Below are positions 10,335 to 12,412 of a stretch of 13,170 nt of DNA, piece by piece. Origin of the DNA: a virus (Duplodnaviria; Heunggongvirae; Uroviricota; Caudoviricetes); the IMG/VR virus record IMGVR_UViG_2526164619_000007, positions 1 through 13,170 of that record; one strand, given 5' to 3'. Every line of letters starts with the position of its first letter. Within the stretch, counting starts at the first letter, position 1. The notes beneath the pieces are model-generated. The model saw only the letters and a program-made list of their open reading frames with translations. It did not search any database and was not told the origin of the DNA. A program made the translations under genes and the position numbers.

Positions 10335-10988
10335 GCAAGCACCTTAAAATCACCATCATACACTAAATCAGTAAGTTGGCAGCATTACCAGCGATTGCCT
10401 GTAGCTCATGCCACGATTTAATCGACGGGCGGGTAAAAACAAGCGATTACACCAAAGAAGAATTACGCCTGATGCATGCAGAAGGTGTTTTTCGCACGCA
10501 AGAAATCTGGAGAAAGGAAGGTTATTTATGATTTACCCAACAAATACAGGCAAAAGCGGGGAACACCTTCGTCTCACCACGCTGGAAAGTGTCTGGATTC
10601 AGGGAAAACTGCGCATGTGGGGGCGCTGGTCGTATATTGGCGGCGGTAAGACGGGGAATATGTTCAACCAGTTGTTGGCCTCTAAAAAGCTGACAAAAAC
10701 GGCAATTAACGAGGCGCTCCGGAGGATGAAAAAAGCAGGTCTGAACAAGTCTGAACTTGAGGCTTTTTTGCGGGATATGATTAACGGTAAGCAAAAGAGC
10801 TGGCTGGCGCATTGTACTGATGCAGAGGCGTTATGTATTGATCGGGTCATAAGTGAGGTGCTGGCAGAGCATCCAGGATTGATTAGCGTCTTTCGGCAAC
10901 GGTATGAGGGGCGGGGTGAAGTGGCACACTGAATTTGGCCACCTGAACAGAGGTGATATGCTCACCTCAGAACAACACAGGTGCTCCA

Positions 10989-11291
10989 ATGAAAAAAAGA
11001 AATTTTAGCGCAGAGTTTAAACGCGAATCCGCTCAACTGGTTGTTGACCAGAAATACACGGTGGCAGATGCCGCCAAAGCTATGAATGTTGGCCTTTCCA
11101 CAATGACAAGATGGGTCAAACAACTGCGTGATGAGCGTCAGGGCAAAACACCAAAAGCCTCTCCGATAACACCAGAACAAATCGAAATACGTAAGCTGAG
11201 GAAAAAGCTACAACGCATTGAAATGGAGAATGAAATATTAAAAAAGGCTACCGCGCTCTTGATGTCAGACTCCCTGAACAGTTCTCGATAA
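10989..11291 (+). CDS. IS911 OrfA (100 aa, HTH/leucine-zipper transposase subunit)
   Basis: [54 protein letters not shown]...; ends just after the A6G slippery site. Confidence 0.9.
11240..11246 (+). other. IS911 programmed -1 frameshift heptamer A-AAA-AAG
   Basis: aaaaaag at 11240-11246 in the orfA zero frame; orfB is open in the -1 frame downstream. Confidence 0.7.
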
Positions 11292-11317
11292 TCGGGAAAC
11301 TCAGAGCGCATTATCCT

Positions 11318-12157
11318 GTGGTCACACTCTGCCAAGTGTTCGGGGTTCATCGCAGCAGCTACAGATACTGGAAAAACCGTCCTGAAAAACCAGACGGCAG
11401 ACGGGCTGTATTACGCAGTCAGGTACTTGAACTACATAGCATCAGCCATGGTTCGGCCGGAGCAAGAAGCATCGCCACAATGGCAACCCGGAGAGGCTAC
11501 CAGATGGGACGCTGGCTTGCTGGCAGGCTCATGAAAGAGCTGGGGCTGGTCAGCTGTCAGCAGCCGACTCACCGGTATAAACGTGGTGGTCATGAACATG
11601 TTGCTATCCCTAACTACCTTGAAAGGCAGTTCGCCGTGACCGAGCCAAATCAGGTGTGGTGCGGTGATGTGACCTGTATCTGGACGGGTAAGCGCTGGGC
11701 GTACCTCGCCGTTGTTCTCGACCTGTTCGCAAGAAAACCAGTGGGCTGGGCCATGTCGTTCTCGCCGGACAGCAGGCTCACCATGAAAGCGCTGGAAATG
11801 GCATGGGAAACCCGTGGTAAGCCCGGCGGGGTGATGTTCCACAGCGATCAGGGCAGTCATTATACGAGCAGGCAGTTCCGGCAGTTATTGTGGCGATACC
11901 AGATCAGACAGAGTATGAGCCGGCGCGGAAACTGCTGGGATAACAGCCTAATGGAACGCTTCTTCAGGAGTCTGAAGAACGAATGGATGCCGGTGGTGGG
12001 TTACGTAAGCTTCAGCGAGGCAGCTCACGCCATAACGGACTATATCGTTGGATATTACAGCGCACTAAGACCGCACGAATATAACGGTGGGTTACCCCCA
12101 AACGAATCGGAAAATCGATACTGGAAAAACTCTAACTCGGTGGCCAGTTTTTGTTGA
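11318..12157 (+). CDS. IS911 OrfB (DDE transposase catalytic domain; expressed as OrfAB fusion)
   Basis: 279-aa frame with integrase-core motifs ([22 protein letters not shown]...E); sits in the -1 frame relative to orfA. Confidence 0.9.
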
Positions 12158-12412
12158 CCACTTCAGGGGATGACTAAACGCAAAATGGCTGAACTGCTGA
12201 ATGATGCACACCCGAAATGGAGTTTAAGAACCTGTGAAAGACGCATTGAGCATTGGCTAAAGGTGGCAGAATTTATTTTGTACAAACCAATGGTTATGGC
12301 TTTTGGTATAGAGAAAAAAGTTATTGCTTTTTGACGTAAAAACTGCCTCAATTCTTGTACGCTTCGCAAAGCTGTACCGCGAGGCGAATAGCAGACATGG
12401 ACATTTGAAAGA

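Follow-up and report, generated by a model that had tools for sequence, protein, structure and literature searches.

Why do two short open reading frames (ORFs) flank a complete copy of the insertion sequence (IS) IS911 in a 13,170-nucleotide stretch of a Caudoviricetes record (IMG/VR IMGVR_UViG_2526164619_000007, positions 1 to 13,170; hereafter the window), and what did the DNA around the element encode before it arrived? A preliminary description of the window had proposed that IS911 entered a roughly 184-amino-acid (aa) gene standing in the position of the phage antiterminator gene Q. Inspection of the junctions, of IS-free relatives and of the reconstructed protein indicates that the region is very probably a pseudogene of a late-gene antiterminator, split by IS911 within a defective lambdoid prophage of Shigella flexneri K-315.

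A single IS911 insertion splits a 184-codon gene

The features on which the reconstruction is based are as follows.

10528-10916, plus strand: 5' part of the Q-like gene (DUF1133, Q21 family), codons 1-129 and two bases of codon 130
10914-10916, no strand: left copy of the target-site duplication, GGG, located by flank comparison and by the overlap of alignment blocks on the IS-free allele
10917-12165, plus strand, same orientation as the Q-like gene: complete IS911 (IS3 family), 1249 bp with an open OrfAB frame
10917-12165, both ends: IS911 terminal inverted repeats, about 36 bp each, imperfect
10989-11291, plus strand: IS911 orfA
11240-11246, plus strand: IS911 A6G slippery site
ending at 12157, plus strand: IS911 orfB, in the -1 frame relative to orfA and open to 12157
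12166-12168, no strand: right copy of the target-site duplication, GGG
12169-12334, plus strand: 3' part of the Q-like gene, codons 131-184, with ATG at 12170 and TGA at 12332-12334

The upstream ORF begins at ATG 10528, which overlaps the stop codon of the preceding gene. As it stands, it reads through 130 native codons, takes on four residues (EVAH) from the left end of IS911 and stops at TGA 10930-10932, yielding a 134-aa truncated product that has been deposited as EIQ24344.1 (SFK315_1495; S. flexneri K-315, contig AKMY01000018.1). On the far side of the element, ATG 12170 opens 54 codons that end at TGA 12332-12334. Removal of IS911 together with 3 bp joins the two halves into an open frame of 184 codons, while removal of IS911 with 1, 2, 4 or 5 bp does not. 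The coordinates of the element, its ggg flanks and the rejoined frame thus agree to the base with those that the preliminary description had given. The two halves also divide a single protein family profile between them, where the 5' fragment covers positions 1-131 of the Pfam DUF1133 model (E 9e-81) and the 3' fragment covers positions 131-176 (E 7e-22).

Comparison with IS-free DNA provides the most direct view of the event. In Escherichia coli CFSAN029787 (locus L001), window positions 10391-10916 correspond to 12001-12526 and window positions 12166-12820 to 12524-13178; both blocks are collinear and 99.4% identical, with a shared overlap of precisely 3 bp (GGG). Without the element, the allele reads CGGGGGATG, and its annotation there is a single 184-aa 'DUF1133 family protein', from which the rebuilt window protein differs solely by L122F. 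The halves therefore form one gene in IS-free relatives and not two unrelated ones. Searching the complete E. coli genomes (n=5426) returned 798 in which one continuous stretch covers at least 80% of the IS-less query, the best of them at 99.4% identity. The K-315 insertion itself is absent from that set, and an exact-junction scan of the GTDB species-representative genomes returned no match. In E. coli AB66, an IS close to a DUF1133 gene (hit H34) proved to lie in the holin region, outside Q.

IS911 was first described from Shigella dysenteriae, and the window copy has the recognized anatomy of the element. Its left end at 10917 reads TGAAGTGGCACAC... and its right end at 12165 reads ...GTTGACCACTTCA, with inverted repeats that begin TGAAGTGG and close ...CCACTTCA, in keeping with IS911/IS3 elements in both length and ends. 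The overlapping orfA and orfB, with the A6G slippery site, encode an OrfAB fusion of 389 aa whose frame is open. Copies annotated 'IS3-like element IS911 family transposase' share about 99.5% identity with the element, and six of them are likewise 1249 bp; HTH_Tnp_1 and rve domains are found on the same IS911 genes in locus L006. Five base differences set the window copy apart from RefSeq copies, four of them private, non-synonymous changes in OrfAB (D33N, G151S, Y230C and P321L); the frame is open, yet this copy may be impaired.

The left junction (10916/10917) reads ...GAGGGGCGGGG on the gene side and TGAAGTGGCACACTGAATTTGGCCACC... on the element side, and the right junction (12165/12166) reads ...GGTGGCCAGTTTTTGTTGACCACTTCA on the element side and GGGGATGACT... 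on the gene side. Written out, the flanks are CGGGG-IS911-GGGGATG, and since the duplication sits within a G-run, the direct repeat has a 4-bp look. This appearance is the basis of a different history, in which the gene was already dead: the run of five G's would have slipped to four (a -1 frameshift) before IS911 entered with a 4-bp GGGG duplication, such that removing the element and the true duplication leaves the frame broken. A four-G allele followed by a 4-bp duplication would yield the identical sequence, a range of 2-4 bp is cited for direct repeats in the IS3 family (PMC3299598), and a G4 allele of this very run exists in a Shigella genome (L010, CP026866). However, the duplication is exactly 3 bp at all six other IS911 copies that have one, and five G's are present in 15 of the 16 other copies of the run in the loci compared, the nearest IS-free allele among them. 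In L010 the gene is surrounded by a different set of IS events, and the simplest account of its G4 is an independent change or a sequencing error in the homopolymer. A prior slippage is accordingly quite improbable. The 3-bp overlap on the IS-free allele and the uniform 3-bp duplications at other IS911 copies show that the event was, as had been suggested, a simple insertion of one IS911 with duplication of GGG; its target was the five-G run at codon 130 in a gene of 184 codons.

The K-315 assembly is a draft whose contig breaks inside the next IS911 and whose last 40 bases look to be of low quality, and reads from a repeated element can be misplaced in assembly. For the copy in the Q-like gene, however, the contig spans the whole IS911, its flanks are unique and its 3-bp duplication is clean, a configuration that misassembly would not produce. 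An identical left junction is also present in a second, independent assembly (L007), such that an artefact is hardly credible. The two K-315 ORFs of 134 and 54 aa, which appear as 'hypothetical' or 'partial DUF1133', are halves of one gene, for which the proper annotation is one pseudogene disrupted by an IS.

The split gene is a probable Q21-family antiterminator of the DUF1133 branch

The assignment to Q was the weakest link of the preliminary description, where it drew on position and a weak motif. We examined the rebuilt protein by profile, structure and neighborhood, and homology to DUF1133 and Q21, fold and gene order each support a Q21-type Q. The protein matches Pfam DUF1133 (PF06576) over the entire model (360.9 bits versus a cut-off of 23.1, E 1e-108, profile positions 1-176 of 176) and matches PHROG 753, 'anti-termination protein Q-like' (E 7e-81). 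NCBIfam gives no match. Searching with the IS-less protein against Phage_antitermQ (PF06530) gives a marginal 27.5 bits versus a cut-off of 26; a relative, P0002, scores 30.9 bits.

More sensitive comparisons connect the two families in both directions. In a search of the Protein Data Bank (PDB), phage 21 Q chains are the only real matches to the rebuilt protein, with E-values of 7e-4 from the single sequence and 5e-5 from a profile. In the reverse direction, close relatives of Q21 (70-80% identical to it) score on the DUF1133 model. An hhalign comparison of 54 DUF1133 with 47 Q21-family sequences returns 97.3% probability and E 1.7e-11, spanning residues 14-181 in 135 aligned columns. Identity to Q21 is about 27%, and the DUF1133 side carries an extra segment of about 35 residues (55-91).

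Structure prediction was applied to P0002 (184 aa, 89% identical to the rebuilt protein) and not to the rebuilt protein. The usable AlphaFold 2 (AF2) model, produced from a 100-sequence combined alignment that includes the Q21 family, has a predicted local distance difference test (pLDDT) score of 70.5 overall and of more than 80 in the C-terminal half. An initial model, made from a shallow alignment of 53 close relatives, was discarded at a pLDDT of 57.8. In a Foldseek search of the PDB with the usable model, the ten best matches are all Q21 (probability 1.0, target template-modelling (TM) scores of 0.65-0.73), whose fold combines a core like sigma region 4 with a helix-turn[loop]-helix, and the next match has an E-value above 1.

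Phage 21 Q (Q21; PDB 6P18, 6P19, 6P1A-C, 6JNX and 6JNY; PF06530) is thus the best and sole convincing match in the PDB by both fold and sequence. Homology is nearly full-length, and the predicted recognition helix and the C-terminal tail are conserved in the window protein. The two differ in size, where Q21 has 162 aa and the window protein has 184, with the additional ~35 residues placed after the N-terminal W-rich helix. The DNA-binding motif of Q21 has a long loop, most of which is missing from the window protein, and the window copy differs further in being split by IS911. Among known genes, the closest counterpart is WP_000640137.1 of E. coli CFSAN029787, the 184-aa DUF1133 protein with the single L122F difference. 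Its locus has the same neighbors, leader, terminator and tRNAs as the window, but that copy is intact with lysis and structural genes retained, whereas the window copy is interrupted and lies in a decayed prophage.

Homology, gene order and predicted fold give good support for placing the gene, as one of the DUF1133 type, in the Q21/Q933W antiterminator lineage; its family is of the Q21/Q933W type and not of the phage 82 type. There is good computational support for counting the Pfam DUF1133 proteins as one branch of the Q21-type antiterminators, which helps to annotate the late-gene switch in many E. coli, Shigella and Salmonella prophages, including some Shiga toxin (Stx) phages.

A conserved leader, candidate late promoter and terminator follow the gene

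The DNA beyond the stop codon contains three features of interest.

12324-12389, plus strand: conserved block that takes in the Q stop codon and the DNA beyond it, candidate for the late promoter and for Q loading, kept in five relatives and in 80 of 80 viral loci
12406-12436, plus strand: tR'-like intrinsic terminator (hairpin and T-run), between the candidate late promoter and the tRNA genes
12524-12756, plus strand: three tRNA genes downstream of the terminator, with a CAT anticodon (Ile in the annotation of relatives), Arg-TCT and Thr-TGT

In CFSAN029787, VL7S7 and phage vB_EcoS-683R6, the gene order is DUF1367, YbcO/DUF1364, the DUF1133 gene, tRNAs, holin, lysozyme and lysis protein/spanin. 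Terminase lies further downstream in the longer CFSAN029787 region, and a conserved leader and terminator separate the DUF1133 gene from the tRNAs in IS-free relatives and phages. The window layout parallels the pR' region of phage 21, namely Q, late promoter, short leader with terminator, tRNAs, holin and endolysin, where the order of the holin and lysis genes is taken from relatives. In the curated phage 21 record, Q is followed by the pR' promoter, whose -35 and -10 elements enclose a spacer with two 8-bp Q-binding subsites; then come the start site, a TAAGCTG pause, a terminator, two tRNAs, holin and endolysin. Downstream placement of tRNA genes relative to the terminator is shared with both phage 21 and Stx-type phages.

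Within 12324-12389, TTGCTT is followed after 17 bp by TG-n-CTCAAT (TTCAAT in relatives) and then by TACGCT (12358-12363) and AAAGCTG (12369-12375), two motifs that resemble the phage 21 pause element TAAGCTG. The 80 IMG/VR loci (L018-L097) all carry the block after the stop codon as AAACTGCTTCAAT ... TA[ACT]GCTTCGCAAAGCTGTAYCGCGAGGCGAA, followed by a hairpin and T-run, and in all of them about 28 bp, TTCGCAAAGCTGTAYCGCGAGGCGAA, are invariant in the interval from the candidate promoter to the terminator. By analogy with phage 21, two promoter models fit about equally, with the -10 element at either 12347-12352 or 12358-12363. TTCGCAAAGCTGTAYCGCGAGGCGAA lies downstream of either candidate -10 element, so at least part of it is probably transcribed. 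The late-promoter and Q-loading function of the block is inferred from this layout.

The terminator is located in a segment (12356-12440) with a folding energy of -31.3 kcal/mol (z -4.4), and its hairpin is kept in relatives though the stem sequence varies. A simple terminator scan did not list it, and Rfam holds no family for the leader. A second hairpin, at 12360-12386, was considered as a conserved RNA structure and rejected: the few variants among the 80 loci mostly disrupt base pairs with no compensating change, and the conservation looks sequence-based.

The phage 21 Q-binding direct repeat (ATTGAGCA / AATGAGCA) was not found downstream of the window gene. As a separate observation, the reverse complement of TGCTTCAAT is ATTGAAGCA, which resembles the subsite ATTGAGCA and may be a coincidence. 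There is a small but appreciable chance that a DUF1133-branch Q loads differently from that of phage 21, with the ~28-bp stretch as a new Q-binding or pause element, or else that the leader of about 65-80 nt is a conserved regulatory small RNA. The late leader of Stx phages has reportedly been found to act as one.

Two changes are private to the K-315 allele. A T-to-C change at 12347, in the candidate -10 hexamer, occurs only in the window when compared with the 80 IMG/VR loci, and a C-to-T change at 10891 causes L122F at a residue invariant in 53 relatives. Both fit drift after inactivation.

Several results weigh against reading the locus as an IS-split antiterminator gene. The PF06530 score barely clears its threshold. 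The structural model is of moderate confidence and describes a protein 89% identical to the rebuilt one, and the Q21-family sequences in its alignment may bias it towards the Q21 fold. Consensus scans near the Q stop codon found no late promoter, pause element or Q-binding site, and a literature search found no experiment in which a DUF1133-type protein was shown to antiterminate; a 2021 survey of Stx phages lists DUF1133 only as 'Q antiterminator (HHPred)' (PMC8136144). The K-315 sequence also reaches only as far as the second IS911, in which the contig stops. The split gene might instead share ancestry and fold with Q21 and act otherwise, for example as an ordinary DNA-binding regulator, and the insertion would say nothing about late-gene control. 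The low identity to Q21 and the extra segment at residues 55-91, together with the missing phage 21 repeat, are compatible with such a role. Set against it are the exact Q position of the gene in the prophages and phages examined in detail, where no second Q-like gene is annotated in the module, and the leader and terminator that follow the stop codon in every one of the 80 viral loci. The nearly full-length alignment to Q21 takes in the recognition helix and C-terminal tail, and the conserved leader contains the pause-like TACGCT and AAAGCTG. With both sides considered, a non-antiterminator role is improbable, and the gene is best described as a Q21-type Q.

Loss of the C-terminal segment is predicted to abolish Q function

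Q21 binds a DNA element and loads onto a sigma-containing RNA polymerase that has paused close to the promoter. A ring that it builds at the RNA exit channel then keeps terminator hairpins from forming; in its DNA-binding motif, residues 105-121 make up the loop and the recognition helix comes next (bioRxiv 10.1101/651190). In our alignments, the 3' part of the split gene matches the recognition helix and C-terminal tail (Q21 residues about 103-155), with window residues 147-177 aligned to Q21 residues 122-152. If the intact DUF1133 protein acts in the same manner, it would bind DNA at the late promoter and load onto RNA polymerase paused just after the start site. Once loaded, it would form a ring that narrows the RNA exit channel so that terminator hairpins cannot form, and transcription would run past the 12406-12436 terminator to reach the tRNA, lysis and structural genes. 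The 134-aa product would have neither the segment that matches the DNA-recognition helix, second in the helix-turn[loop]-helix of Q21, nor the C-terminal contact to RNA polymerase, and would be expected neither to bind nor to load. Because the insertion after residue 130 cuts off both, the interrupted gene is most likely non-functional.

The preliminary description had gone further and held that the insertion would leave the prophage unable to express its late genes. Loss of Q would indeed be expected to block them, but the prophage is already wrecked. Two copies of IS1, a second IS911 in tRNA-Val and frameshifts in two replication genes are all present, and therefore the Q lesion, one among many, is probably not what disabled it. 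Further phenotypic cost from this lesion is probably nil.

The surrounding prophage is extensively decayed

The additional lesions in the window include the following.

641-1408: second IS1 copy, adjoining a truncated integrase gene and 99.6% identical to the other IS1
9623-10389, plus strand: IS1 in the DUF1364/YbcO gene immediately before Q, a further hit on this module, with a clean 9-bp duplication AGCGATTGC and gene fragments at 9465-9622 and 10390-10531
12760-12820, plus strand: tRNA-Val remnant, whose final 10 nt are cut off by the second IS911
12821-13170, plus strand: left end of the second IS911, up to the point where both the window and the contig end

The phage integrase ORF (1-654, minus strand) runs off the window, and the integrase end of the prophage is disrupted as well. 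Relative to an E. coli relative, 1-bp deletions at 3377 and 4400 (A8 to A7, and the loss of a C) split a replication-initiator-like helix-turn-helix gene and a DnaB-type helicase gene into two ORFs each. At the opposite end, the tRNA-Val of L001 occupies 13118-13188 and the alignment to the window stops at 13178; Rfam reports a partial tRNA at 12769-12823.

The second IS911 occupies the same site in two other Shigella genomes (L010, 4652-5899; L011, 4653-5900). Beyond it, the right flanks of L010 and L011 differ from one another, with no continuation of the tRNA, and the late genes are absent there; in these two genomes the element marks a deletion or rearrangement junction. Its orfA carries an A7-to-A6 frameshift in common with L010. 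The last 40 bases of the window also contain a scrambled slippery site, absent from L010 and L011, that is probably a contig-end error.

In the early-right region, a QueH-like (epoxyqueuosine reductase) gene and a hok/sok toxin-antitoxin pair lie at 7221-7907 and 7965-8290, respectively, where Rfam scores sok at 117 bits. The pairing of a tRNA-modification gene with neighboring phage tRNA genes may merit attention.

Shigella genomes appear to have lost the gene on several occasions

In other Shigella genomes, the Q gene has been inactivated by five further lesions (positions about 3610-4165 in each locus).

L010 (CP026866): G5 to G4 in the exact run hit by IS911
L008: G4 to G3, five bases upstream of that run
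L011: +1 frameshift near codon 99
L012: stop codon at W92
L014: +1 frameshift near codon 116

These loci were found through a search with the orphan 54-aa ORF, which biases the sample towards broken copies, and some of the single-base changes could be sequencing errors. Within such a sample, the gene appears to have been lost repeatedly. Repeated independent loss fits the known IS-driven decay of prophages in Shigella. The K-315 event is itself routine, and its value is mainly one of annotation.

Loci L009, L013 and L015-L017 (about 2450-4165) present a different arrangement, with an intact 184-aa copy followed by a reversed IS911 fragment and then by a partial second copy of the 3' end. This partial copy starts about 20-45 bp upstream of the IS911 target run, and the arrangement looks like an IS-mediated junction between two related prophages.

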